From Clostridia bacterium (GTDB lineage: Bacteria; Bacillota; Clostridia; Christensenellales; Borkfalkiaceae): a DNA stretch of 33,926 bases. Shown piece by piece: positions 3,049-33,926 of this stretch. Each line of letters starts with the position of its first letter. The first letter of the stretch is position 1. A program made the position numbers and the translations under genes. The stretch lies in NCBI GenBank assembly GCA_017501125.1, contig JAFVXN010000131.1:1-33926 (forward strand). Reading direction: 5' to 3'. The notes under the pieces are model-generated. The model saw nothing but the letters and a program-made list of their open reading frames with translations. It was not told where the DNA came from and made no database searches.

Positions 3049-4683
3049 ATGGAAAATATAGAAGCAAGCAACTTTATCGAACAAATCGTCATCGACGATT
3101 TAGCGGCGGGGAAGATTAACGAGGTGCAGACCCGTTTCCCTCCCGAACCCAACGGCTATTTGCATATCGGGCACGTCAAGAGTATGCTCGTCAACTTCGG
3201 TACGGCGAAGAAATTCGACGGCAAGTGCAATCTTTTCTTCGACGACACCAACCCCTCCAAGGAGAAGACGGAATTCGTCGACGCAATCCGCAAAGATATC
3301 GAGTGGATGGGCTTTTCGTGGGCGAAGGAAGTGTACGCCAGCGACTTTTTCCCCGTCATCTACGAGTACGCGGAAAAACTCATCTTAGACGGCAAGGCGT
3401 TCGTATGCGATTTGTCGCCCGAAGAGATTTCTGCGACGCGTGGCACCCTCAAAGAGGGTGGCAAGGAGAGCCCGTACAGGAATCGTAGCGTAGAGGAGAA
3501 CTTGACCCTCTTTAGAGAGATGAAGGCGGGTAAGTATCCCGACGGGAGCAAGTGTTTGCGCGCAAAAATCGATATGGCGTCGCCCAACATGAACATGCGC
3601 GACCCCGTCATCTACCGTATTTTGCGTAGCACCCATCACCGCACGGGCGATACGTGGTGCATCTACCCTATGTACGACTACGCACATCCTATCTGCGACT
3701 ATTTGCAGGGTGTGACGCACTCCCTTTGCACGTTGGAGTTCGAGGATCACCGTCCCCTGTACGACTGGGTGGGTATCAACCTCGGCTTTGAACCCAAGCC
3801 TAGACAGATAGAATTCGCTCGACTTGCTATCACCAACACGGTTATGAGCAAGCGTTATCTTAAAAAACTCGTGGAAGAAAATCACGTCCACGGCTGGGAC
3901 GATCCCCGTATGCCGACGGTGACGGGGCTTAGGAACCGTGGCGTTCCCCCCGAAGCGCTGATTGATTTTTGTACGAAAATCGGCGTCGTTAAAGCCAACT
4001 CCGAGTGTCAGTTGTCCTACCTTGAGGCGTGTATCCGCGACAATCTCAACGCCAACGCAGAGAGGGCGATGGCGGTACTCGAGCCGTTGAAGGTGACGAT
4101 TACCAACTACGAGGGTAGCGAGCAGTTGTCGACGGCGTTGCACCCGTTGAAACCCGAACTTGGCGAAAGACCTTTGGCTTTTTCGGGCACCGTCTATATC
4201 GACAAAGCCGACTTCTCCCTCGACCCTCCTCCCAAGTATCAGCGGTTAAAACTCGGCGGCTACGTGCGTCTTAAGAACGCGTACATCATTCGTTGCGACG
4301 AGGTCGTACAGGACGACAAGGGCGAGGTAGTCGAACTCAAATGCACTTACGTTCCCGAGAGTAGATCCTCTTGCGATACGAGCGGTATCAAAGTCAAAGG
4401 CACCATTCAATGGGTAGACGCGGCGACGGGCGTGCCTGCGGAGATTCGCAAATATTCCTATCTTTTGAAGGATGCGGAATACGCAGGGCAGGACTTTGGC
4501 GAGCGTATGAATCTGGACAGCGAAACCATCTATCATGGCTACGCGGAGCCTTATCTGGCAGAGAGCGCTAACGAGAGCAGATTCCAGTTGATGCGCGTCG
4601 GCTATTATAAAAAATGCGTCGACGAAAAGGGTGGGCTCGTACTCAGCGAGATAGTCTCCCTCAAAGATAATTTCAATAAGTAA
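3049..4683 (+). CDS. glnS: Glutamine--tRNA ligase
   Basis: 544 aa. TRFPPEPNGYLHIGH (HIGH motif) and VMSKR (KMSKS variant), plus a GlnRS-type C-terminal anticodon-binding region. Starts 26 nt after fhs with an AAGGAAG RBS. Confidence 0.93.
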   Translation: MENIEASNFIEQIVIDDLAAGKINEVQTRFPPEPNGYLHIGHVKSMLVNFGTAKKFDGKCNLFFDDTNPSKEKTEFVDAIRKDIEWMGFSWAKEVYASDFFPVIYEYAEKLILDGKAFVCDLSPEEISATRGTLKEGGKESPYRNRSVEENLTLFREMKAGKYPDGSKCLRAKIDMASPNMNMRDPVIYRILRSTHHRTGDTWCIYPMYDYAHPICDYLQGVTHSLCTLEFEDHRPLYDWVGINLGFEPKPRQIEFARLAITNTVMSKRYLKKLVEENHVHGWDDPRMPTVTGLRNRGVPPEALIDFCTKIGVVKANSECQLSYLEACIRDNLNANAERAMAVLEPLKVTITNYEGSEQLSTALHPLKPELGERPLAFSGTVYIDKADFSLDPPPKYQRLKLGGYVRLKNAYIIRCDEVVQDDKGEVVELKCTYVPESRSSCDTSGIKVKGTIQWVDAATGVPAEIRKYSYLLKDAEYAGQDFGERMNLDSETIYHGYAEPYLAESANESRFQLMRVGYYKKCVDEKGGLVLSEIVSLKDNFNK

Positions 4684-6453: not shown

Positions 6454-6484
6454 TTGACTAAAACCCTTCTTTTTTGCATACAAT
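6454..6484 (+). promoter_or_regulatory. Candidate promoter for the ferritin-like gene
   Basis: TTGACT (6454-6459), then TGcATACAAT around 6475-6484. The spacer is 18-19 nt, which is long. Confidence 0.4.
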
Positions 6485-6512
6485 GATAAGGTGCAATAAA
6501 AAGGAGGGGACT

Positions 6513-7787
6513 ATGAATCCGTTTTTAGAAAAGCCTATATCTATCGAAAAATCTTTGCAAAACTGGAAGGAACTGTATCCGCGCCCGTACCACAAAATGG
6601 AGGTGGACCCGTACACCAAGACGAGGATTATCCTTATGAACGGGACGGAGTTCGAGGCGAACTGGTTTTCCCATCAACTTGCCCGTCACACCTGTGACAA
6701 CGACCTGCGCCGTGACCTTTCGCTGGCGCGTATGGTGGAAAAGCAGCAGCAACTCAAGATTTCGCTGTTAAAGCCTGCGAACGAAAGCGCGCTGGAACAC
6801 ACGATCGGCTACGAGCAACTTGCCGTCGATTTGACGGCGGAACTTGCCAAGCGTGAAAAGGATTGCGACGTCAAAAAGGCGTTGGATTTTGCCTTGCTGG
6901 AAGACTTTGACCACTTATATCGCTACGCCAACCAGTTGGAGATGGAGCAGGGCGTTATCGCCGAGAGGCTGGTGGGTGGCTACACGGAGATTATGCCAGG
7001 GCGACCCACGATTGCGCATCACAGATTCCCCAAAGACAACGTCAAGAGGTGTATTAATTCCAAGACTGCGGATAAGCAAACGGTACTGGCGACCCTTATT
7101 ATCACGGCGGCAGAACAGCAGACGATGAACTATTATATGAATATCACCAACTTCGCGCGCAACGATATGTCGCGGAAGTTGTACGAGGAGATAGCGCTCG
7201 TAGAAGAGGAACACGTCACGCAGTACGAAAGTTTGCAAGACGCAGGCGCGACGTGGTTGGAGATGCTCCTTTGGCACGAGTATACGGAGTGCTACCTTTA
7301 CTGGTCCTGCTACAAGACGGAGACCTGCGACTATATCAAGGCGTTGTGGCTCCAGAACCTCGAGATGGAGATTGCGCACCTGCACAAGGCGGCGGAACTC
7401 CTCAAAAAATACGAAGGGAAGGAGTGGCAGGAGGTTATCCCCGACGGCAATTTCCCCAAGCCTTTGTCCTTGCACGAGAACATCGAATACGTGCGTGAGA
7501 TTTTAGCCACGACGGTGCAGTATACGGGCGTGAAAGAGGGGTACGAGAATATCGACGACCTGCCCGACGACGCCACCTTCTTCAACTATCAAAAACAAAT
7601 CAACCCCACGGCGTGTATCGTACCCTCTCACGGAGTAATCGACGCGCATATCCGCCATTGTGGAAAAGACTACCGCTACGAAGTAGCGGAGAATCCCGTC
7701 AAAGCCCTCCGCTCCCGTCAGTGTGACAATACGACGGTGGGGATAGTAAAGGGGGTGGCAAAGAGCACGGGCTTTACCTGTAATTAA
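6513..7787 (+). CDS. Ferritin-like / di-iron-carboxylate type protein, function unknown (424 aa)
   Basis: Start moved to the ATG at 6513, which has an AGGAGGGG RBS (the track ORF starts at 6474). Several E..E/ExxH-type helices: TEFEANWFSH, LEDFDHLYRY, VEEEHVTQYE, EMEIAHLH. I cannot name the family precisely. Confidence 0.75.
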   Translation: MNPFLEKPISIEKSLQNWKELYPRPYHKMEVDPYTKTRIILMNGTEFEANWFSHQLARHTCDNDLRRDLSLARMVEKQQQLKISLLKPANESALEHTIGYEQLAVDLTAELAKREKDCDVKKALDFALLEDFDHLYRYANQLEMEQGVIAERLVGGYTEIMPGRPTIAHHRFPKDNVKRCINSKTADKQTVLATLIITAAEQQTMNYYMNITNFARNDMSRKLYEEIALVEEEHVTQYESLQDAGATWLEMLLWHEYTECYLYWSCYKTETCDYIKALWLQNLEMEIAHLHKAAELLKKYEGKEWQEVIPDGNFPKPLSLHENIEYVREILATTVQYTGVKEGYENIDDLPDDATFFNYQKQINPTACIVPSHGVIDAHIRHCGKDYRYEVAENPVKALRSRQCDNTTVGIVKGVAKSTGFTCN

Positions 7788-7804
7788 GGGTTTTTCTTCT
7801 TATA

Positions 7805-7890
7805 GGCTTCGCAATACTTCGTCGAGGCTCGCTTGCGTACTACCTGTACGCGCGCTTGCTTCTCCTTGTCTTGCTCGCCTCTAAAAAGAA
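7805..7890 (+). repeat. Intergenic structured repeat, unit A1 (type 1)
   Basis: GGCTTCGCAATACTTCGTCGAGGCTCGCTTGCGTAC-TACCT-GTACGCGCGCTTGCTTCTCCTTGTCTTGCTCGCCTCTAAAAAGAA. Starts 17 nt after the stop at 7787. Shares family words with units at 7902, 9119, 9888, 15498 and 23944. Confidence 0.9.
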
Positions 7891-7901
7891 AAGGGTGGAA
7901 G

Positions 7902-7988
7902 GGCTTCGCAATACTTTGTCGAGGCTCGCTTGCGTACTACCTGTACGCGCGCTTGCTCTCTTCTTGTCTTGCTCGCCCCTAAAAAGAA
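7902..7988 (+). repeat. Intergenic structured repeat, unit A2 (tandem to A1)
   Basis: Same unit 97 nt downstream of A1. It differs at only a handful of positions, including one 1-nt indel. Confidence 0.9.
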
Positions 7989-8014
7989 AGCAATTCCTAT
8001 GAAATTTTTGACAA

Positions 8015-8042
8015 ATACCGTCGTGATTTTTCACGGCGGTAT
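8015..8042 (+). terminator. Strong hairpin, possible terminator of the ferritin-like transcript
   Basis: ATACCGTCGTG-ATTTTT-CACGGCGGTAT: 11 bp with one G.U. It is followed by CTTTAC, so the U-tract is poor. Confidence 0.4.
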
Positions 8043-8043
8043 C

Positions 8044-8072
8044 TTTACAAACGGGCAGAAGTTTGCTATACT
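8044..8072 (+). promoter_or_regulatory. Promoter of the nitroreductase gene
   Basis: TTTACA (8044-8049), 17-nt spacer ending in TGc, TATACT (8067-8072). Confidence 0.6.
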
Positions 8073-8113
8073 ATATTAAAAAGATACGCCCACGCGCGTA
8101 TAAGGAGAAAGAG

Positions 8114-8638
8114 ATGAACGAAACTTTGCGTACCATTTTAGAAAGACGTAGCGTCAAAAAATACAAGCCCGACCCCGTCGCAAAAGACTTGATCGAGCAG
8201 GTAGTGGAGGCGGGTACCTTTGCCGCAACGGGCAGGAACCTGCAATCCCCGATTATCATCGCCGTCACCAACAAAGCGGTGCGTGACGAACTCTCCCGTA
8301 TCAACGCCGAGGTAATGGGCGCAAGTGGCGATCCCTTCTACGGCGCGCCCTGCGTGCTCGTCGTCCTCGCCGACAAATCAGTGTCGCGCAACTATATCTA
8401 CGACGGCTCCCTCGTGATGGGCAATCTTATGCTGGCGGCGACCTCGCTGGGGCTTGGTAGTTGCTGGATTCATCGCGCAAAGGAAACGTTCGAGTTGCCC
8501 GAAGGCAAAGCGCTCTTGAAAAAACTCGGTATCGACGGGGATTTTGAAGGAATCGGCAACTGTGTCATCGGCTATGCCGATTGTCCGCAACCTGAGGCAA
8601 AGCCCCGCAAGGAAAACTGGGTGTATTTTGTAGAATAA
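8114..8638 (+). CDS. Nitroreductase family protein
   Basis: Start at the ATG 8114 with an AAGGAGA RBS (the track ORF starts at 8063). MNETLRTILERRSVKKYK is the typical nitroreductase N-terminus. 174 aa. Confidence 0.88.
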   Translation: MNETLRTILERRSVKKYKPDPVAKDLIEQVVEAGTFAATGRNLQSPIIIAVTNKAVRDELSRINAEVMGASGDPFYGAPCVLVVLADKSVSRNYIYDGSLVMGNLMLAATSLGLGSCWIHRAKETFELPEGKALLKKLGIDGDFEGIGNCVIGYADCPQPEAKPRKENWVYFVE

Positions 8639-8686
8639 GCAATCCAAAATTTCCCAAAATAATTTTAACTTTTTTTGCATAACCTA

Positions 8687-8715
8687 TTGACAAGCCTAAT
8701 TCGATATGCTATTAT
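8687..8715 (+). promoter_or_regulatory. Promoter of the superoxide reductase gene
   Basis: TTGACA (8687-8692), 17-nt spacer ending in TGc, TATTAT (8710-8715). Confidence 0.65.
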
Positions 8716-8753
8716 TTAATTAGGATTGAATATCAATAAAGGAGAATGAATTG

Positions 8754-9113
8754 ATGAAAGTATACGTTTATTTATGTGAAAAATGCGGTAAGGCAGTAGT
8801 TTCCACGCACGAACTCAACGTGGAGGGATACAAACTGTTAGAGGCAGGCACGACGGATGCGGCGGTGGAAAAACACGTCCCCGTGGTGGAAAAGAGATGT
8901 GGCGAAATCAAGGTTAGCGTCGGCTCCGTTATGCACCCTGCAACGGCAGAACACTATATCGAGTGGGTGCTCCTCGTCTCCGACAACGGCTACCAACTCA
9001 AATATATCCCCGTAGGGCAAGAGGCGGTGGTAAGTTTCCGTCTGGGCAAGGGCGAAAAACTGCAAGAAGTCTACGCTTATTGCAATCTTCACGGTCTCTG
9101 GAAAGCCGACTAA
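8754..9113 (+). CDS. Superoxide reductase (desulfoferrodoxin/neelaredoxin family)
   Basis: Centre II ligand motifs are present: EKHVPV, MHPATAEHYIEW and YCNLHGLW. The N-terminal segment has only one CxxC (CEKCG) and lacks the second Cys pair of a desulforedoxin-type centre I. ATG at 8754, 8 nt after AAAGGAGA. Confidence 0.88.
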   Translation: MKVYVYLCEKCGKAVVSTHELNVEGYKLLEAGTTDAAVEKHVPVVEKRCGEIKVSVGSVMHPATAEHYIEWVLLVSDNGYQLKYIPVGQEAVVSFRLGKGEKLQEVYAYCNLHGLWKAD

Positions 9114-9118
9114 TCTGC

Positions 9119-9236
9119 CTATAAAATACGTCGCAATACTGCGTTGCGCTCCGTGCCGCTTTGCTTGCGTACGAAAAAGTACGCTCCCGTCAGCGGTACT
9201 CGCGCGCCTTGTCTTGCTTGTATTTTCCTACGGCAG
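9119..9236 (+). repeat. Intergenic structured repeat, unit B (type 2)
   Basis: CTATAAAATACGTCGCAATACT...GTGCCGCTTTGCTTGCGTAC-GAAAAA-GTACGCTCCCGTCAGCGGTACTCGCGCGCCTTGTCTTGCTTGTATTTTCCTACGGCAG. Starts 5 nt after the stop at 9113 and is followed by TTTTT. Confidence 0.9.
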
Positions 9237-9271
9237 TTTTTATGTGAATAATTTAATTTAAGAGGGTAATT

Positions 9272-9877
9272 ATGGACAAAAAGGCGATGTACAAATTGTC
9301 GTACGGGCTTTTCGTACTGACGGTCAACGACGGCAAAAAGGACAGTGGCTGTATCACCAATACGGTGATGATGATGACGGACAATCCTTGCAGGATAGTG
9401 GTTTTCGTCAACAATGCTAACTACACGGCGGAGGTCTTGAAAAAGACGGGCGTGTTCAACGTGTCCGTCCTTGCCGAGAGTGCGCCCTTCGATTTGTTCA
9501 AGCGTTTCGGTTTTCAAAGCGGTCGCGACGTGGACAAATTCGCGGATACAAAGTATCCGCGCGCAGAGAACGGGCTCCGCTATATCGACGAAAACGCCAA
9601 CGCGCTGATTAGTGCGAAAGTGGTGGATAAGTACGATTACGGCACGCATACCTTGTTCGTTGCCGAGGTGACGGACGCCGTCACGCTCTCTGAGGAAAAC
9701 AGCGTGACCTACGCCTATTATCAAGAGAATATCAAGCCCAAGGCAAACGCCCCCAAGGAAGAGGGCAAGGAAAAGTGGGTTTGTTCGGTATGCGGCTACG
9801 TGCACGAAGGACCCCTGCCTGAGGATTTTGTATGTCCTTGGTGTAAACATCCCGCCTCTGATTTTGTCAAAGCGTAA
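9272..9877 (+). CDS. Flavin reductase-like domain fused to a C-terminal rubredoxin (high-molecular-weight rubredoxin type)
   Basis: 201 aa. N-terminal flavin-reductase-like domain (YGLFVLTV...GCITNTV). C-terminal WVCSVCGY...CPWCKHP carries the two CxxC pairs of rubredoxin. Confidence 0.85.
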   Translation: MDKKAMYKLSYGLFVLTVNDGKKDSGCITNTVMMMTDNPCRIVVFVNNANYTAEVLKKTGVFNVSVLAESAPFDLFKRFGFQSGRDVDKFADTKYPRAENGLRYIDENANALISAKVVDKYDYGTHTLFVAEVTDAVTLSEENSVTYAYYQENIKPKANAPKEEGKEKWVCSVCGYVHEGPLPEDFVCPWCKHPASDFVKA

Positions 9878-9887
9878 AAATCAAAGA

Positions 9888-10068
9888 CGCATACTCGGCA
9901 CTATACTTCGTCGAGGTGCGTTTTTTGTTTGCTTGCGTACGCCTTAGTACGCGCGCTTCACAAAAAACTTCTCTCCTCGTCTATCACCAAGTCTTCGTCT
10001 TTGAGGGTGATGAGGATGCATCGTCGGTACTCGCGCTCCTTGTTTTGCTCGTATCTTCGCCTTTACCG
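9888..10068 (+). repeat. Intergenic structured repeat, locus C (one full type 1 unit plus a truncated second unit)
   Basis: CGCATACT..ACTTCGTCGAGGTGCGTTTTTTGTTTGCTTGCGTAC-GCCTTA-GTACGCGCGCTTCACAAAAAAC..CCTCG, then ..GTCTTCGTCTTTGAGGG...GGTACTCGCGCTCCTTGTTTTGCTCG. Starts 10 nt after the stop at 9877. Confidence 0.85.
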
Positions 10069-10081
10069 TATGATTAAATAT

Positions 10082-10114
10082 AAAACAGCGTAGGACAAAG
10101 CCACGCTGTTTTTT
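10082..10114 (+). terminator. Intrinsic terminator downstream of the rubredoxin-fusion gene and repeat C
   Basis: AAAACAGCGT, an 11-nt loop, then ACGCTGTTTT followed by TT. Confidence 0.7.
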
Positions 10115-10197
10115 CTTTGTGTAATGAAGATGATTTAAGGCAAAAAAGTCTTTTTTTGTCGAAAAGAAAAAATTGCCAAAAAGCACCGTAAAATAAC

Positions 10198-10226
10198 TTG
10201 ACAAGCCTTTTATAACTTGTTATAAT
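10198..10226 (+). promoter_or_regulatory. Consensus sigma-A promoter of rpsU
   Basis: TTGACA (10198-10203), exactly 17 nt, TATAAT (10221-10226). Confidence 0.8.
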
Positions 10227-10276
10227 CAGTAGCGTACTTGAAAAATAATGCGGTTGGCAAAGGAAGGTGAAAAAGG

Positions 10277-10453
10277 ATGTCCACGGTAAAAGTAGGCGAA
10301 AACGAGAACGTTGAAAGCGCCCTTCGTCGTTTCAAGAGAAAGTGCTCTCGCGACGGTATCATCGGCGACTTGAGAAAGAAAGAATTCTACGAAAAACCTT
10401 CCGTTAAGAGAAAGAAAAAATCGGAAGCCGCAAGAAAAAGAAGTAGAAACTAA
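10277..10453 (+). CDS. rpsU: 30S ribosomal protein S21
   Basis: Not in the track (58 codons). My translation is [75 protein letters not shown] region lies upstream. Confidence 0.92.
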
Positions 10454-10460
10454 TCAAGAG

Positions 10461-10487
10461 AACTCACGCAAAACGCGTGAGTTTTTT
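10461..10487 (+). terminator. Intrinsic terminator of rpsU
   Basis: CTCACGC-AAAAC-GCGTGAG followed by TTTTTT. Confidence 0.85.
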
Positions 10488-10558
10488 CTTTGCAAAAATT
10501 CTCCTTTTCGGGGCGTTTTTGTCGAAGAAAATCTAATAAAAAAGGAGGGGGTCGAAAG

Positions 10559-11024: not shown

Positions 11025-13454
11025 ATGAGCGAAACGAAAGAAATTCTGGACAAATTAAACGAGGAACAGTTGGCCCCCGTCTTACAGACGGAAGGGCCTG
11101 TTTTGGTACTTGCTGGGGCGGGCAGTGGCAAGACGCGCGTGCTCGTCTCCCGTATCGCCTATCTCGTCGACGAGAAGGGGGTAAATCCTGCAGGGATACT
11201 CGCCATCACCTTCACCAACAAAGCGGCTGGCGAGATGAAAGAAAGGTTGTTCGGCGTCGTGCCGACTAGGGATATGTGGGTGTCCACCATTCACAGCATG
11301 TGCGTACGCATTTTGCGGGACTTTGCCAAAGAGGCAGGCTTAGAAAAAAACTTTTCGATATACAGCGAGACGGAGCGCAACAACGTCCTCAAAAAATCCT
11401 TTCAGGAGTGCGGTTTTGAAGACGAGAACCTCTTAAAGAGTGCAAAATACCACGTCGGCAACGCCAAGATGCTCGGCTATTCTCCCGAAAGATACGCGGA
11501 GGAATTCGCAGGGGAAAGAGACATCGAGGACGTGACGAAGATTTACGCGCGCTATCAAAAGCACCTGCGTGAAAACAACGCGCTCGACTTTGACGATTTG
11601 CTGAGCGAAACGCGCGATTTGCTCGCTAAGAACAAAGAGGTGCTCGAATACTTATCGGGTAGATTCCGCTATATTTTGGTGGACGAGTTCCAAGACACCA
11701 ACGCGGTGCAATACGAGATTATCAAGATGCTTGCCACCGTCCACGGCAACCTGTTCGTAGTAGGGGACGACGACCAGTCGATATACGGCTGGCGTGGCGC
11801 GAAGATTGAGAACATTTTGCACTTCGAAAAGGATTTTAGGGACGCGAAGGTTTTCAAGTTGCAACGCAACTACCGCTCCACGAAACAAATCTTAAACCTT
11901 GCCAACACCGTGATAAAGAACAACGGCAGGCGCAAGGAAAAGACCCTCTGGACGGAGAACGAGGAGGGGACGAAACCCAGATTGCACGAGGCGGACGAGG
12001 AGAGCGGCGAGGCAAGATACGTCGCGCAGACGATCGTCTCTTTGAGACGGCAGGGCTATCAATACAAGGATTTTGCGGTGCTGATGCGTCTCAACGCTTT
12101 GACCCGCTCCTTCGAGCAAGAATTCTCCGCGGACGGGATTCCTTTCAAGGTCTTCGGTGGCTTTAAGTTCTACGAAAGAAAGGAAATCAAAGATTTGCTC
12201 GCCTATTTGCGCCTTATCGCCAACCCGTTCGATAGCGAGGCGGCGGTGCGCATCATCAACTTCCCCAAGCGTGGCATCGGTGCCAAGACGGTGGAGGCGT
12301 TGATCCATTACGCCAACGAAACCAACTCCTCCGTCTACGACGCGTTGTTCGAGTTGGACGAAATCGGCTTTACGGGCGCGACCCGTCAAAAATTGGAGAA
12401 CTTTGCCACCCTCGTCAACAAGTGGATAAAAGACAGCATTTCCCTGTCCGTGGACGAGTTGGTCAAGAACATCGTTGCGGATACGAATATGCGTCTCGTA
12501 TACGGCGACGATAGCGACGATAGCCTCAACAAACTCGCCAACATTGACGAATTTATCAACGCCGTCGACGAATTTTGCAGGCTGAATCCGCAGGCGACCC
12601 TCGTCGATTATTTGGCGCAGGTCACCCTGTCTACGGATACGGACGAGATGGACGAGAGCGACTACGTGACGCTGGCGACCATTCACGCGGTCAAGGGGTT
12701 GGAATTCCCTTGCGTGTTCATCGTCGGCTTAGAGGAAAATATTATGCCCGTCTCTCGCGCCTCGTCCAGCGATACGGATTTGGAGGAGGAGAGAAGGCTG
12801 ATGTACGTCGCCATCACGCGCGCTAAGGAGTATCTTTGCCTCACCCGTAGCAAGTCGAGATTCCTCTACGGCAAAAGGGAACTCACGGGCAGGTCGCGCT
12901 TTATAAAAGAACTCGCCTCTGCCTTGGATATGCCCAAGGAAAAACCCCGTTACGGCGGTGGATACAATAGTGGCTACGGCGGCTACGGCAATAGCGGTAG
13001 GTATCGCGATTCGTCGGGCGACGACGATTTTTACAGTGAGAGCAATTACGGCGCGGCGCGATTTGGCGGCGGTAGCGGTGGCTATGGTGGCTACAACAAA
13101 TCCTCCTACGGTGGATACAACGGTGGCTATAACAAGTCCTACGGCGGCTACGATAGGCGCTACGACGAGGAGAGTTATAACAGATACTCGCCAGCCAACC
13201 CTAGCGTCTACGGCGGGAAGAAGGACAGTGGCGTCGCCTACGGGGGTAGTACCTCGTTCAAGCCGAAGGCGGAAAAGAGCGTCGACGTCTCCGTCTTTAA
13301 GGTGGGCGTGAGGGTGTCGCACGCAAAATTTGGCGACGGAATGATTGTCGGCGTGCACGGTGCAGGCAACAACACGATCGTGGACGTGGCGTTCACGGGA
13401 TACGGCATCAAGCAACTTTCGGCGACGATTGCGCCGCTTAAAATCATAGGATAA
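11025..13454 (+). CDS. pcrA: ATP-dependent DNA helicase PcrA/UvrD (superfamily 1) with an expanded Gly/Tyr-rich linker
   Basis: Helicase motifs AGAGSGKT, DEFQDTN, VGDDDQSIYGWRGA, TIHAVKGLEF and EEERRLMYVAITRA. C-terminal Tudor-like domain FKVGVRVSHAKFGDGMIVGV. The start is set at the ATG 11025 (MSETKEILDKLNEEQ) because the N-terminal length then matches PcrA. Confidence 0.93.
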   Translation: MSETKEILDKLNEEQLAPVLQTEGPVLVLAGAGSGKTRVLVSRIAYLVDEKGVNPAGILAITFTNKAAGEMKERLFGVVPTRDMWVSTIHSMCVRILRDFAKEAGLEKNFSIYSETERNNVLKKSFQECGFEDENLLKSAKYHVGNAKMLGYSPERYAEEFAGERDIEDVTKIYARYQKHLRENNALDFDDLLSETRDLLAKNKEVLEYLSGRFRYILVDEFQDTNAVQYEIIKMLATVHGNLFVVGDDDQSIYGWRGAKIENILHFEKDFRDAKVFKLQRNYRSTKQILNLANTVIKNNGRRKEKTLWTENEEGTKPRLHEADEESGEARYVAQTIVSLRRQGYQYKDFAVLMRLNALTRSFEQEFSADGIPFKVFGGFKFYERKEIKDLLAYLRLIANPFDSEAAVRIINFPKRGIGAKTVEALIHYANETNSSVYDALFELDEIGFTGATRQKLENFATLVNKWIKDSISLSVDELVKNIVADTNMRLVYGDDSDDSLNKLANIDEFINAVDEFCRLNPQATLVDYLAQVTLSTDTDEMDESDYVTLATIHAVKGLEFPCVFIVGLEENIMPVSRASSSDTDLEEERRLMYVAITRAKEYLCLTRSKSRFLYGKRELTGRSRFIKELASALDMPKEKPRYGGGYNSGYGGYGNSGRYRDSSGDDDFYSESNYGAARFGGGSGGYGGYNKSSYGGYNGGYNKSYGGYDRRYDEESYNRYSPANPSVYGGKKDSGVAYGGSTSFKPKAEKSVDVSVFKVGVRVSHAKFGDGMIVGVHGAGNNTIVDVAFTGYGIKQLSATIAPLKIIG

Positions 13455-15451: not shown

Positions 15452-15480
15452 TTGAAATTTAGAAAAATCTTTGCTATAAT
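15452..15480 (+). promoter_or_regulatory. Near-consensus promoter of the yicC-gmk-rpoZ transcript
   Basis: TTGAAA (15452-15457), 17-nt spacer ending in TGc, TATAAT (15475-15480). Confidence 0.75.
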
Positions 15481-15497
15481 AGCAAAGTAAAGCAGTG

Positions 15498-15614
15498 CTT
15501 ATAAAATACTTCGCAATACTTCATTGTGTTTTGTGCCGATTTGGTCGTGTGCGTCCAAGTACACTCCCTTCATCAGTACTCGCGCCTTGTCTTGCTTGTA
15601 TTTTTTGACGGCAG
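15498..15614 (+). repeat. Intergenic structured repeat, unit D (type 2), located in a 5' leader
   Basis: CTTATAAAATACTTCGCAATACT...GTGCCGATTTGGTCGTGTGC-GTCCAA-GTACACTCCCTTCATCAGTACTCGCGCCTTGTCTTGCTTGTATTTTTTGACGGCAG. The 3' module matches unit B except for a CG indel. Confidence 0.9.
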
Positions 15615-15655
15615 ATTGCTTAACGTTAATTAACCGCCTCCAAGGAGAAAAGATT

Positions 15656-23275: not shown

Positions 23276-23929
23276 ATGAAAGAAATCAAGATTGCGCCGT
23301 CCATATTGTCGGCGGACTTTTCCAAGATGGGCGAGGAGGTAATCTCGCTGGAAAAAGCGGGCGCGGATATCATCCATTGCGACGTGATGGACGGGGTGTT
23401 CGTCAACAACATCACCTTCGGTATCAAGATGGTAGAGGATCTTAGGAAGGTGACCAAATTGCCTCTCGATTGCCACCTTATGATAGTCAATCCCGAAAAA
23501 TACGTGGAGAGGTTTGCCAAGGCGGGCGCGGATATTATCACCGTCCACTACGAGGCGTGCAAAGAGGGTTTGAAAGACACCTTGCAACGCATCAAAGATT
23601 GCGGTGTAAAATGCGGCGCGGTCATCAATCCCGACACTCCCGTCGAGAAGATTAAAGACGTGATTCCTATGTGTGATATGGTGCTGGTGATGAGCGTTTT
23701 TCCTGGTTTTGGCGGTCAAAAATTTATCGTCGACGCCCTTGATAAGTTGCGTCAGGTTAAGGCGATTATTGAGGCGTGTGGCAAGGATATCGACCTGCAG
23801 ATAGACGGTGGCGTAGGGATAGACAACGTAGCCGCAGTCAAAGAGGCAGGCGCCAACGTAATCGTCGCGGGTAGTGCGGTCTTTAAGGCGGAGGATCGTG
23901 CGGCTACTATAAGCGCCTTAAAATCCTAA
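23276..23929 (+). CDS. rpe: Ribulose-phosphate 3-epimerase
   Basis: 217 aa. Motifs APSILSADF, HCDVMDGVFVNN and MSVFPGFGGQKF. Confidence 0.95.
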   Translation: MKEIKIAPSILSADFSKMGEEVISLEKAGADIIHCDVMDGVFVNNITFGIKMVEDLRKVTKLPLDCHLMIVNPEKYVERFAKAGADIITVHYEACKEGLKDTLQRIKDCGVKCGAVINPDTPVEKIKDVIPMCDMVLVMSVFPGFGGQKFIVDALDKLRQVKAIIEACGKDIDLQIDGGVGIDNVAAVKEAGANVIVAGSAVFKAEDRAATISALKS

Positions 23930-23943
23930 AAGCCGTATATGCG

Positions 23944-24044
23944 GCGCGATACGGCGTCGAGGTGCGTTGGTTGCTTGGTCGCGTACGTCTAAGTACGCTC
24001 CCGTCACAACCGCCTTCTCTCCTTGTCTCGCTTGCATCTACGCC
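23944..24044 (+). repeat. Intergenic structured repeat, unit E (type 1)
   Basis: GCGCGATACGGCGTCGAGGTGCGTTGGTTGCTTGGTCGCGTAC-GTCTAA-GTACGCTCCCGTCACAACCGCCTTCTCTCCTTGTCTCGCTTGCATCTACGCC. Starts about 14 nt after the rpe stop. Confidence 0.85.
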
Positions 24045-24060
24045 TTTTACATAGTATAAA
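24032..24060 (+). promoter_or_regulatory. Candidate promoter whose -35 lies in the 3' end of repeat E
   Basis: TTGCAT (24032-24037), 17-nt spacer, TATAAA (24055-24060). Confidence 0.5.
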
Positions 24061-24086
24061 ATTTCCGTATGGAAAAGGAGGAAAAA

Positions 24087-24275
24087 ATGATGAAAAAAGA
24101 GAACAGATTCGTCGTGATACATAAGGAAGGCACGACGTGGAAAAACGAAGGGATAAGACAGTTGCTCGTCGACAAAGAGACGGGAGTCACCTACCTTTGC
24201 TGGTTGTCTGGCTACGGCGCGAGTTTGACACCGTTGTTGGATACGGAAGGCAAGCCGATCATCACCAAACTATAA
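24087..24275 (+). CDS. Small conserved hypothetical protein (resembles the DUF6440-type small Firmicute proteins)
   Basis: MMKKENRFVVIHKEGTTWKNEGIRQLLVDKETGVTYLCWLSGYGASLTPLLDTEGKPIITKL. AAGGAGG RBS 5 nt before the ATG at 24087; the adjacent ATG at 24090 is also possible. The family assignment is from memory only. Confidence 0.6.
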   Translation: MMKKENRFVVIHKEGTTWKNEGIRQLLVDKETGVTYLCWLSGYGASLTPLLDTEGKPIITKL

Positions 24276-25244: not shown

Positions 25245-26888
25245 ATGCAAAAAACGATAAATAGCACCGAATTTCGTAAGATGATTCTTGTGGGTGCAAA
25301 GGCTTTAGAGAACAATCGCGCCAAAGTTGACGCGCTCAACGTATTCCCCGTTCCCGACGGAGATACGGGTACCAATATGTCCTTGACGATGCAGTCGGCG
25401 GTCCGCGAGATTACCGCTTGCACCTCCAACGCTTTTATGGAGGTCTGCGACGCCGTCTCTAAAGGCGCCCTCAAAGGCGCAAGAGGCAACTCCGGCGTTA
25501 TCCTTTCCCAGATTTTGCGCGGTATCTGTGCAGTTTTGAGAGAGTGCGGGGCAGAATTTGACGTAAAAACCTTCGCGAAAGCGATGGAAAACGGCACGAA
25601 AGTTGCTTACGGTGCCGTGGCTGTACCCAAAGAAGGTACGATTTTGACCGTCGTTCGTATGATGAGCGAACACGCCGTTAAGGTGGCGGGCAAAAAGAAA
25701 ACTTTTGAAGAATTCTTCGCGGAAGTCATCGACGCGGGCGAAAAAGCGCTTGCTTTGACGCCGGAACTTCTCCCCGTCTTGAAAAAAGCAGGCGTCGTAG
25801 ACAGCGGTGGCGTCGGTTTGATGACGATTATCAAGGGCTTTGCCTCCGTCATCACGGGCGAAGAGGTGGCTGACGTCGACACGGAAGTCGCCGAACAAGC
25901 CCCTACGGACGATTTTGGCGACAATTCCGATATCATCAATCTCGATTTGGGCGAAATTCAATTCGCGTACTGTACGGAATTCTTCATCATCAACCTCAAA
26001 AAGAGCACGACGCTGTCCGATATCGACAGATTGCGTGAAAAACTCCTCAATTTGGGCGACTCCGTCATCTGTATCGGCGATCTCGACCTCGTAAAAGTGC
26101 ACGTCCACACCAACCAACCTGGCAAGGCACTCACCTACGCGCTCGAACTTGGCGAACTTGACCGTCCTAAAATTGAGAATATGCTCGAACAAAACCGTCA
26201 ACTTCGTGCCAAAATGGAGGCGGAGAAGAAGGAAATGGGTATGCTTGCCGTCTGTGCAGGGCAAGGTCTTGCTGAGATTTTCAAAGATTTGGGCGTAGAC
26301 CGCGTCATTGAAGGGGGTCAAACGATGAACCCCAGCGCGGACGATATCGCAACGGCGGCGCAACGCATCAACGCGGAACACATCTTCATCTTCCCCAACA
26401 ACAAAAACATCATCTTGGCGGCGGAACAAGCAAAGGATTTGGTGGAAAATCGTACGATTCACGTAATCCCTACCAAGAACGTACCTCAAGGCTTTGCGGC
26501 GGCGCTCGAATTCAACCCTGAGGCTAGCGCGGCTGAGAACAAAATCAATATGTTGCACGCCCTCGAGAACGTAAAAGCGGGTCAGGTCACTCACGCTGTC
26601 CGTGACACCTCCCTCAACGGTTTCTCCATCAAGGCTGGCGACATCATCGGCTTGGACGACAAGAAGATTTTGGCTAAGACGAAGTCTGTCGACGATACGG
26701 TACTCAAACTCATCGAAAAGATGAAAGAGGAGTTCCACCAAGTCATCACCCTCTACTACGGCGAGGACGTAAAAGAGGAAGAGGCGGAGGCGCTTTGCGC
26801 GAAAATTGCAGAGCAGTATCCCGATTGTGACGTCGATTTCCATCGTGGCGCACAGCCTGTATACTTCTATTTCATCTCTTTGGAATAA
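25245..26888 (+). CDS. DAK2 domain-containing protein YloV
   Basis: 547 aa. DALNVFPVPDGDTGTNM signature and a DegV-like C-terminal half. The 512-aa ORF on the opposite strand is an antisense shadow. Confidence 0.92.
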   Translation: MQKTINSTEFRKMILVGAKALENNRAKVDALNVFPVPDGDTGTNMSLTMQSAVREITACTSNAFMEVCDAVSKGALKGARGNSGVILSQILRGICAVLRECGAEFDVKTFAKAMENGTKVAYGAVAVPKEGTILTVVRMMSEHAVKVAGKKKTFEEFFAEVIDAGEKALALTPELLPVLKKAGVVDSGGVGLMTIIKGFASVITGEEVADVDTEVAEQAPTDDFGDNSDIINLDLGEIQFAYCTEFFIINLKKSTTLSDIDRLREKLLNLGDSVICIGDLDLVKVHVHTNQPGKALTYALELGELDRPKIENMLEQNRQLRAKMEAEKKEMGMLAVCAGQGLAEIFKDLGVDRVIEGGQTMNPSADDIATAAQRINAEHIFIFPNNKNIILAAEQAKDLVENRTIHVIPTKNVPQGFAAALEFNPEASAAENKINMLHALENVKAGQVTHAVRDTSLNGFSIKAGDIIGLDDKKILAKTKSVDDTVLKLIEKMKEEFHQVITLYYGEDVKEEEAEALCAKIAEQYPDCDVDFHRGAQPVYFYFISLE

Positions 26889-33650: not shown

Positions 33651-33688
33651 ATCGTGGGGTGCTGACGCACCCCTCAAAAGTGCAGGTG

Positions 33689-33723
33689 TATCGAAGCGGT
33701 CATAACGAGGCGGTCTTGAAAAC
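33689..33723 (+). pseudogene. Orphan 5' fragment of tRNA-Ser(UGA): D-arm through anticodon loop
   Basis: The 35 nt TATCGAAGCGGTCATAACGAGGCGGTCTTGAAAAC are identical to 33880-33914 of the tRNA gene 191 nt downstream. Identity stops inside the anticodon arm. There is no acceptor stem or 3' half. Confidence 0.7.
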
Positions 33724-33863: not shown

Positions 33864-33872
33864 TTCATATGT

Positions 33873-33926
33873 GGAGAGTTATCGAAGCGGTCATAACGAG
33901 GCGGTCTTGAAAACCGTTTGGGGATC
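33873..33926 (+). tRNA. tRNA-Ser (anticodon UGA), 5' 54 nt; truncated by the window end
   Basis: GGAGAGT acceptor arm, 3-bp D stem TCG/CGA with a long D loop (class II tRNA), and anticodon arm GCGGT-CTTGAAA-ACCGT with UGA at positions 34-36. GGTCTTGAAAACC matches bacterial tRNA-Ser(UGA). Confidence 0.8.

Follow-up and report, generated by a model that had tools for sequence, protein, structure and literature searches.

The closest described counterparts of the element dealt with here are several palindromic or intercistronic bacterial repeats. ERIC (or IRU) elements are imperfect palindromes of ~127 bp that are transcribed as parts of intergenic regions or 3′ untranslated regions (3′ UTRs) and are reported to alter mRNA stability; attC sites (e.g., the Vibrio VCRs of ~125 nt) are imperfect palindromes of 57–141 nt that are recognised by their structure and possess conserved unpaired bases; and MIRUs are intercistronic repeats of operons that follow the orientation of the genes, touch the upstream stop codon and occur as tandem copies. 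REPs situated no more than 15 nt from a stop codon cause ribosomes to stall and reduce translation, and ~11% of the REPs predicted in Escherichia coli lie at such a distance (PMC12306157); BOX, RUP and SPRITE of Streptococcus pneumoniae cluster and insert into one another (PMC10969869). The subject of this study is a hairpin at positions 9912–9979 (+ strand) of a 33,926-nt stretch of DNA from a “Clostridia bacterium” (contig JAFVXN010000131.1; hereafter, the whole stretch is referred to as the window), which a preliminary description had flagged as a stacked structure shared by several units and maintained by compensatory substitutions. This hairpin is the core of one copy of an undescribed, dispersed, non-coding family of 105–130-nt imperfect-palindrome repeats, carried by uncultured gut Clostridia and also by soil Actinobacteria, and we lean, with little more than even confidence, towards seeing in it a mobile hairpin repeat family of the REP/ERIC/BOX-like kind, co-transcribed as a 3′-UTR or intercistronic hairpin.

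Copies of the repeat within the window

The window is a stretch of bacterial chromosome with almost all of its genes on the + strand, and it contains six copies of the repeat, all of them on the + strand and intergenic. A covariance model (R1), built from copies unrelated to those of the window, scored the six at 54.6–108 bits and detected no seventh, the top minus-strand score being 20.5 bits, and the pattern CTCCTTGTCTTGCTYG, with up to three mismatches allowed, had seven matches in the window, all on the + strand, versus 0.46 expected. Every copy folds as one long imperfect hairpin of ~105–130 nt, reaching beyond the flagged 68 nt, and the window units are more stable than their dinucleotide shuffles (z of −2.7 to −5.5 on the + strand, in single-sequence folds). 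With the helices numbered from the outermost (P1) to the apical one (P6), the copies and the features of copy C are as follows:

7792–7895, + strand: copy A1, short form without P5; R1 79.3 bits; fold z −3.4
7899–7984, + strand: copy A2, without P5, repeat family D12; R1 54.6 bits
9115–9239, + strand: copy B, neighbouring genes assigned by Pfam; R1 89 bits; fold z −3.3
9881–10064, + strand: copy C, with a partial match at 10023–10068; R1 72.7 bits
9912–9979, + strand: flagged interval, the inner part of copy C
9935–9940/9947–9952, + strand: P6 of copy C, loop at 9941–9946
9920–9927/9961–9968, + strand: P5 of copy C
10082–10112, both strands: canonical bidirectional intrinsic terminator, downstream of copy C and outside the element
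15494–15616, + strand: copy D, in the yicC 5′ UTR; R1 82.2 bits
23927–24052, + strand: copy E, full-length; R1 108.1 bits; fold z −4.4

The distance from the stop codon to the element is 4, 1, 3 and −3 nt for copies A1, B, C and E, respectively. Copy A1 follows the TAA stop (7785–7787) of a 437-aa open reading frame (ORF; 6474–7787), B is placed between the desulfoferrodoxin gene (TAA at 9111–9113) and the flavin reductase/rubredoxin gene (start at 9272), C follows a TAA at 9875–9877, and the first three bases of E are themselves the TAA stop of rpe (23927–23929), which is paired with a UUA near 24047–24050. Copy D is the exception in the window, residing in a 5′ UTR just 3′ of a sigma-70-like promoter (15452–15480) and not at a stop. 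Copy A2 is a tandem duplicate of A1 (core 98% identical, spacing 97 nt), and copy C is a rearranged composite, in which the main body (9881–9982), its 3′ core (CCTCGTCTATCACC) decayed, precedes a 42-nt insert (9983–10024) and a second, B-type 3′ half (10025–10064), the latter being what the outer 5′ arm of the copy pairs with.

Anatomy of the hairpin and covariation of its arms

A MAFFT alignment of all 183 copies led to a poor RNAalifold structure, and two 80-sequence sets of diverse copies (alignments A2 and A3) were used instead; the anatomy and pair counts given here come from these. From the outside inwards, the hairpin consists of:

P1: outermost helix, 7–12 bp, variable and covarying
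P2: UAUAYAC/GUAUCUC, with fixed U.C mismatches
P3: GCAA.AC/GU.UUGC, nearly invariant, with a fixed U.C
Internal loop inside P3: UGYGUY opposite YCCUU
P4: 4 bp, variable and covarying
P5: variable, optional and covarying; missing in A1, A2 and a 104-nt size class
Between P5 and P6: GG/CC, then a 3 × 3 pyrimidine loop UCR/YUC
P6: apical helix CGUAC-(5–7 nt)-GUACG, the core being GG-UCR-CGUAC-loop-GUACG-YUCC

Over 27 pairs, 92.0% of the alignment cells can pair versus 71.3% in column shuffles, and double changes affect 481 cells versus 168, neither the pairing nor the double-change value having been reached in any of the 500 shuffles, while slid-partner controls gave 22–52% pairing. When the structure is extended to 39 pairs, pairing amounts to 86.7% versus 69.9% in shuffles, and double changes to 542 versus 187. 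The notion of a stacked hairpin with compensatory substitutions is thus well supported, and the sequences that the preliminary description quoted were all found in place (e.g., the inner stem of copy D at 15547–15564, and CGAGG at 9912–9916 with CCTCG at 9975–9979). Its inner and middle stems, corresponding to P6 and P5, were both recovered and covary in the 80 diverse copies, which makes them right; that all of the units fold alike holds insofar as the six copies do constitute a real repeat family, but P5 is absent from A1 and A2. The proposed outer stem (CGAGG/CCTYG) was not confirmed, as it is off by one register and pairs the 5′ arm with the conserved unpaired CCUUG, the covarying P4 being located 4 nt further in (e.g., GAGG/CUUC in copy E). 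Similarly, just the UCCC of the supposedly conserved single-stranded word TCCCGTC(A) is conserved, with its CC paired to GG, and the structure does not end with the flagged 68 nt, since a single hairpin takes in the whole unit, two more helices lying on its outside. A local mini-hairpin of the 5′ arm (CGCA-AUAC-UGCG), possible in about half of the copies, shows no covariation and was not adopted.

The strand question

An excess of G.T over A.C on the + strand, from which a sense-strand RNA had been argued, is seen in the window copies but is not retained family-wide. G.U:A.C is 60:44 in the 80 diverse copies for the 27 pairs (p = 0.14) and 80:133 for the extended 39 pairs (p = 3 × 10⁻⁴, towards the minus strand; 80:94 when one pair is left out). 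The minus strand is the more stable one by RNAfold in 126 of 156 unique copies (mean of 4.7 kcal/mol), the conserved mismatches are all Y.Y on the + strand, meaning R.R or G.U on the minus strand, and, at the pair adjoining the apical stem, 40 copies have G-C and 39 have A.C, G.U being absent. The wobble pattern is symmetric or, if anything, leans to the minus strand, and it contains no pointer to a sense RNA; an excess of G.U-compatible positions on the minus strand is just what the preliminary description had itself named as removing its strand argument. The evidence falls short of showing that the hairpin owes its integrity to a sense-strand RNA. The + strand is nevertheless expected to be the one transcribed, because the element is co-oriented with its upstream gene and starts at the stop of that gene, not because of wobble.

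Intermediates of compensated pairs are very rare (e.g., pair 62/78 is CG in 49 copies and UA in 31, with no intermediate), which would be expected if few events had been amplified by copying, and is also expected if the arms had been corrected in DNA by quasi-palindrome template switching. Such template-switch mutations are an established phenomenon, and we infer their possible action on the arms of this repeat.

Two rival explanations are to be weighed against these data. One of them, which we regard as fairly unlikely, is a host-functional cis-acting RNA module, in which the core would bind a conserved RNA-binding protein or an RNase (the predicted binding site comprising the apical GUAC hairpin and the internal loops rich in pyrimidines, YCCUUG among them), and the outer helix, by enclosing the stop, would report on or control translation termination, the recycling of ribosomes or how the upstream cistron decays, with mobility a secondary matter. 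The same asymmetric mismatches being fixed in nearly all copies would suit such a module, but its wobble is not sense-favouring, A.C is accepted at least as often as G.U, and the sense strand gives the less stable fold. What is generally expected of a cis-regulatory RNA was not seen either, as A.C is not avoided on the transcribed strand and the copies lack a constant gene-family association. The other, in our view unlikely, is a single-stranded DNA (ssDNA) hairpin site for a structure-specific enzyme (HUH/Y1 of the IS200/IS605-RAYT type, or a tyrosine recombinase with an attC-like substrate), with the orientation set by the replication fork and the “covariation” reflecting what the enzyme needs in folded DNA. 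The near balance of G.U and A.C fits this, and the conserved bases that are mismatched or lie outside the helices are reminiscent of what makes attC and IS608 ends strand-selective, but there is one long hairpin here and no separate left-end and right-end hairpins.

Extent and novelty of the family

The family comprises at least 209 matches in at least 137 public loci (referred to by L numbers where needed) of Christensenellales-like Clostridia, 144 of these matches being mutually less than 80% identical. A strict pattern with 25 specified bases had at least 120 metagenome matches. About 100 of the 120 loci listed by a looser pattern scan of GTDB genomes were chance matches, the real members being recovered by nhmmer, which placed real copies in 13 loci from Christensenellales, Christensenellaceae, Christensenella sp., Ca. 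Scatosoma, Ca. Caccopulliclostridium and “Clostridia” metagenome-assembled genomes (MAGs). The Christensenella sp. label belongs to one matching genome (L057), and this genus includes cultured strains. Clear members are also present in two high-GC MAGs of Solirubrobacterales (Actinomycetota; L026 at 51.9 bits and L117 at 37.8 bits by covariance model), and a further metagenome contig (L138) of 46% G+C overall has two copies of 61–63% G+C; the copies in all three share conserved blocks, including a 5′ block CGCAAUACUGCGUC that is absent from the search pattern. Conservation of the core in both Bacillota and Actinomycetota is an argument for an RNA module. The loci contain 0.88 extra copies per 10 kb, the window having six in 34 kb.

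No match at the gathering score was found in Rfam 15 for the whole window, nothing overlapped a copy at E ≤ 10 within 7700–10500, and nothing appeared at E ≤ 1 in the actinobacterial loci. No account of the repeat family was found in the literature searched, nor any described repeat for Christensenellales-like gut Clostridia. A plasmid or phage origin was rejected, as neither PLSDB nor INPHARED had a blastn match to the element; a single IMG/VR contig (L241) shares an 8.8-kb overlap with a metagenome contig (L191), and the two are identical there. Protein coding on the minus strand was rejected as well, since the conserved blocks of copies B and E, translated by eye, fall into differing frames and contain stops. 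One subfamily (L133, L160, L235 and L237) always carries an extra small hairpin CCGTTCTTTRACGG just past its 3′ end, and its arrays can comprise as many as four or five copies (L237, 1207–1786).

Anchoring at stop codons

Gene context was counted using a crude ORF caller, with Pfam serving to correct the calls that were checked. Element and upstream gene share one orientation in 145 cases and have opposite ones in 17; at co-directional sites, 88 copies are sense versus 5 antisense, and 28 sites are convergent versus 6 divergent. Among the antisense calls, the one in L172 is a gene-calling error (the true genes are rpsQ and rplN, with the element between them), those in L169 and L226 are, judged by position only, probably shadow-ORF errors, and those in L054 (ilvD-leuC) and L146 (clpP-clpX) are real. 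The 5′ end of the element is found at a median of 4 nt from the upstream stop (interquartile range of −3 to 84), the downstream start at a median of 184 nt. In 86 of 141 copies, the first base of the stop codon falls between −26 and −17 relative to the CGCAAUAC anchor, i.e., within the first bases of P1 or just 5′ of it, and TAA makes up 82% of the adjacent stops versus 63% for other genes (p = 2.5 × 10⁻⁴). In convergent regions, it is always the 5′ end, and never the 3′ end, that adjoins a stop, and all of the 35 multi-copy contigs show one orientation each. The polarity of the element is set by gene context, namely by the stop of the co-oriented upstream gene, and the upstream genes have no shared function or single gene family (neighbours of the copies include pcrA, ligA, yicC, rpe, rpsQ-rplN, queA, secA and hslV).

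Strict sense orientation and a helix that begins at the stop codon are what an RNA module would predict, while the copies in a 5′ UTR (D), in antisense (L054 and L146) and in degenerate tandem arrays, the lack of a common function among the upstream genes, and the failure to find a partner protein run counter to it. An ssDNA site would likewise have a single orientation on each of those 35 contigs, and the 2–5 antisense copies among 93 co-directional ones are near the expectation that we estimate from an ~80% leading-strand gene bias; like attC, the copies are in sense orientation after stops and occur in arrays. The contigs of the loci are no longer than 20 kb, so orientation set by replication and orientation set by transcription are not separable in them, but the consistent adjoining of a stop by the 5′ end in convergent regions ties the polarity to the gene.

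Position at gene ends could also suggest a conserved type of intrinsic (Rho-independent) transcription terminator, all the more so as the outer helix of the commonest subfamily is an A-tract/GC/U-tract one (UAAAACGC...GCGUUUUA) and a run of at least four T is found in the 3′ flank of 68 of 155 copies. Such a run is, however, missing in 56% of the copies, none of the six window copies was called terminator-like on the + strand, and 25 of 136 copies have a separate canonical terminator within 175 nt. Copy C is one after which a separate terminator follows (10082–10112), meaning that the element is not itself the terminator there. Copies are also found inside operons, between the S17 and L14 genes (L172), yicC and gmk (L205) or dfx and the flavin reductase gene (window copy B), and between formerly overlapping genes; a terminator between S17 and L14, yicC and gmk or overlapping genes would be polar on essential genes. 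Given the lack of window calls, the 44% share of T runs, the operon positions and the separate terminators, a terminator identity was rejected for the family, and we consider it very improbable.

An outer helix drawn from the host gene

P1 varies more than any other part of the element and is often host-derived. In the copies behind queA of three genomes, the 5′ arm of P1/P2 consists of native QueA C-terminal codons (..GAT GAT GAT TGT ATA A), the QueA Pfam profile aligning to its last position there, and the 3′ arm CAATCCTCATC complements it at 10 of 11 positions. In L174, the same element follows a yafQ toxin gene and includes the final 9 codons of queA, with no queA within 6 kb, which indicates that the helix arose at queA before being copied to another site. 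Pairing of the 3′ flank with 6 or more coding nucleotides is seen in 38 of 102 copies, versus 16 of 102 with a shuffled flank, and perfect helices of 9–12 bp between coding sequence and 3′ flank are present in L182, L108 and L153. The stop codons have matching partners as well: TAA/UUA, TAG/CUA and TGA/UCA (the TGA of L117 pairs with UCA). In minimum free energy (MFE) folds, the helix starts at the stop, with a paired fraction of ~0.25 upstream and 0.5–0.6 downstream. An outer helix tailored to each host gene, including its stop, is easily reconciled with an RNA module, but the stop codon is wholly within a helix in only 26 of 91 MFE folds.

Gain, loss and copying

Copy D is present in the window and in L245, whose Rpe is 99% identical, and absent from the same promoter to ribosome-binding site interval in L242 and L248; these close relatives of the window are “Clostridia bacterium” MAGs found through Rpe homologues. 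Other filled and empty orthologous sites are L205 versus the window, L180 versus L144/L196, and L171 versus L165. Copies that are 95% identical are located behind unrelated genes (hslV in L156/L150/L222 and secA in L187), and those of 93–95% identity have flanks that are just 51–66% identical. Arrays of 2–4 copies, often with partial ones, occupy 33 of 168 sites, and behind rpe, where the window has one full copy, L245 has two tandem composites with an A-type short copy inside an E-type one. Gene content also changes at the rpe element site between these two strains, whose Rpe proteins are 99% identical: the array is followed by a glycoside hydrolase family 4 gene in L245 (10655–12350), and a DUF6440 gene takes that place in the window (23930–24275). 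In L171 (~3700–3742, minus strand), TTATAAGCGGCTTCTC lies beside a full copy and looks like the 5′ strand of P2 joined to its 3′ strand, and it may be the footprint of a copy with its interior deleted.

Orthologous copies are better conserved than their surroundings (98% identity with flanks of 90%, and 94% with flanks of 74%), which could reflect purifying selection, conversion or recent transfer. That orthologous copies are conserved above the flanking coding DNA would be welcome to the proponent of an RNA module. For an ssDNA site, one would look for its enzyme, and no transposase or integrase was found beside the arrays, the flanks being core housekeeping genes and a ribosomal operon and not cassettes. 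No split copy with a kb-sized insert was found in ~1.6 Mb of loci, the largest internal inserts being of ~40–130 nt.

The favoured reading and its consequences

What is seen in dispersed hairpin repeats is seen here as well: the copies are non-coding, reside at unrelated intergenic sites, form a hairpin and are polymorphic for presence and absence. As a mobile hairpin repeat, the element would spread by a copy mechanism, and the complementarity of its arms would be preserved either through selection acting on the hairpin or through correction of one quasi-palindrome arm on the template of the other, the latter producing “compensatory” changes with no selection at the RNA level. Co-transcription with the upstream gene implies that the sense RNA should form a long hairpin starting from the stop codon. 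Such a hairpin might act as a barrier to 3′–5′ exonucleases or as an endonuclease processing site, shifting the relative stability of the upstream and downstream cistrons, and might also hinder terminating ribosomes, which would have to melt P1–P2; by analogy, the effects would most likely be those of stop-proximal REP and ERIC.

A number of observations sit uneasily with this preference for a mobile repeat. Dispersed copies of the window are 65–78% identical, and there is no near-identical dispersed pair among them, hence no recent burst here; no transposase was found beside the arrays of L013 and L237 (Pfam on the surrounding ORFs showed housekeeping and helix-turn-helix genes). The true ends have no terminal inverted repeats, the conserved blocks GCAAUAC/GUCUUGC being ~20 nt inside, and there is no clear target-site duplication, TA or TAA at both junctions (L171 versus L165, and L205 versus the window) being no more than suggestive, given that these pairs are 67–81% identical and A/T-rich. 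The family is far more biased in orientation than REP, ERIC or Correia elements are, and a core conserved across two phyla, unusual for selfish repeats, points to a specific conserved partner. Lastly, the rough balance of G.U and A.C is no less compatible with maintenance at the DNA level than with a function of the RNA, and any RNA role is putative.

Taking the unusual features at face value, one could imagine a cross-phylum “stop-codon clamp”, which strikes us as rather doubtful: a conserved protein would recognise the core, and the outer helix, written in situ as a complement to the last codons and the stop, would either couple the fold to translation termination or serve a new structure-specific DNA recombination or insertion system in Gram-positives. 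The formation in situ of a 3′-terminal inverted copy of the 5′ flank would itself, if true, be an unusual signature of insertion or repair, and if the unusual features do reflect function, both termination-coupled mRNA control and a new hairpin-specific recombination system would be directly testable. Whichever reading is preferred, a large and cleanly defined repeat family, with a working covariance model, is added for Christensenellales-like gut Clostridia, a poorly studied group. It also carries a caution: strong covariation in a palindromic DNA repeat is by itself no proof of an RNA structure under selection, and the G.U/A.C balance together with the host-coded outer helix points to DNA-level arm correction as an alternative source of covariation.

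Other features of the window

The genes of the window include ones for a nitroreductase, desulfoferrodoxin (dfx), flavin reductase-rubredoxin, rpsU, pcrA, ligA, yicC, gmk, priA, def, fmt, rpe and others. Between copy A2 and the nitroreductase promoter, at 8010–8045, there is an A/T-closed hairpin ATACCGTCGTGATTTTTCACGGCGGTAT, which is probably the real terminator of the upstream ORF, though missed by the terminator scan. Downstream of copy C, rpsU (10277–10453; ribosomal protein S21 by by-eye translation) is a monocistronic unit with a perfect TTGACA-17-TATAAT promoter with a TG extension (10198–10226), flanked by the bidirectional terminator upstream (10082–10112) and its own terminator downstream (10461–10483). 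Degenerate tandem repeats (GGCGGTGGATACAAYRGTGGCTAC...; families D7 and D10) at 12951–13167, in the C-terminal part of pcrA before the Tudor domain, encode, by eye, a Gly/Tyr-rich low-complexity linker. Opposite a DAK2/FakA-like gene (25245–26888, + strand), a 512-aa antisense shadow ORF (25305–26843, minus strand) is nearly as long as the gene itself; the shadow ORFs that misled the ORF caller in the loci (e.g., L169 and L226) are of a similar kind.

The window ends (33865–33926) inside what by eye appears to be a tRNA-Ser(UGA) gene (GGAGAGTTATCGAAGCGGTCATAACGAGGCGGTCTTGAAAACCG...) with a TTGACT-17-TATAAT promoter upstream; no tRNA or tmRNA was found in the window by ARAGORN. A 50-nt copy of the 5′ half of this tRNA-Ser (33674–33723; repeat D14), 88% identical, is located 191 nt upstream and could be a tRNA-fragment duplication or an attachment-site scar.

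Comparison with known repeat systems

A derivation from an insertion sequence as a MITE finds no terminal inverted repeats and no parent insertion sequence in the ~1.6 Mb of loci to rest upon. Membership of integron attC sites was rejected, as the boxes RYYYAAC/GTTRRRY are absent on inspection of alignments A2 and A3, no integrase is nearby and the flanks are housekeeping genes, not cassettes. The likeness to attC lies in the position directly after the stop of the preceding ORF, the sense orientation and the arrays, whereas the outermost helix, which is the most conserved one in attC, is the least conserved here. MIRUs differ in being 40–100-bp direct tandem units with small ORFs for translational coupling and no long hairpins.

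REPs and BIMEs resemble the present family in being clustered extragenic palindromes of 3′ UTRs or between cistrons, with the same stop-proximal spacing. A REP unit, however, is of 20–40 nt and not a single hairpin of 105–130 nt; BIME units alternate in orientation and are tied to RAYT transposases, while here there is one orientation and no RAYT beside the arrays; and the share of REPs close to a stop in E. coli contrasts with a median of 4 nt here. The unit length, the single orientation and the lack of a transposase beside the arrays led to the rejection of REP/BIME (RAYT) membership.

With BOX, RUP and SPRITE, the family shares the plan of a modular Gram-positive hairpin, conserved on the outside and with an optional or variable middle module (here, the P5-less form), as well as nested copies; those three have no sequence similarity to it, are not stop-anchored or orientation-locked and are confined to one genus each. 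ERIC is similar in size, in its single long hairpin, in the size variants due to internal indels and in the structure being kept among diverged copies, but is unrelated in sequence, is found in both orientations with no anchoring at stops, and is confined to Enterobacteria and Vibrio, the present family being one of Clostridia and Thermoleophilia. Single-orientation anchoring at stop codons, an outer helix coded by the host and a core present in two phyla are what make this family unusual for repeats of the REP/MITE kind.

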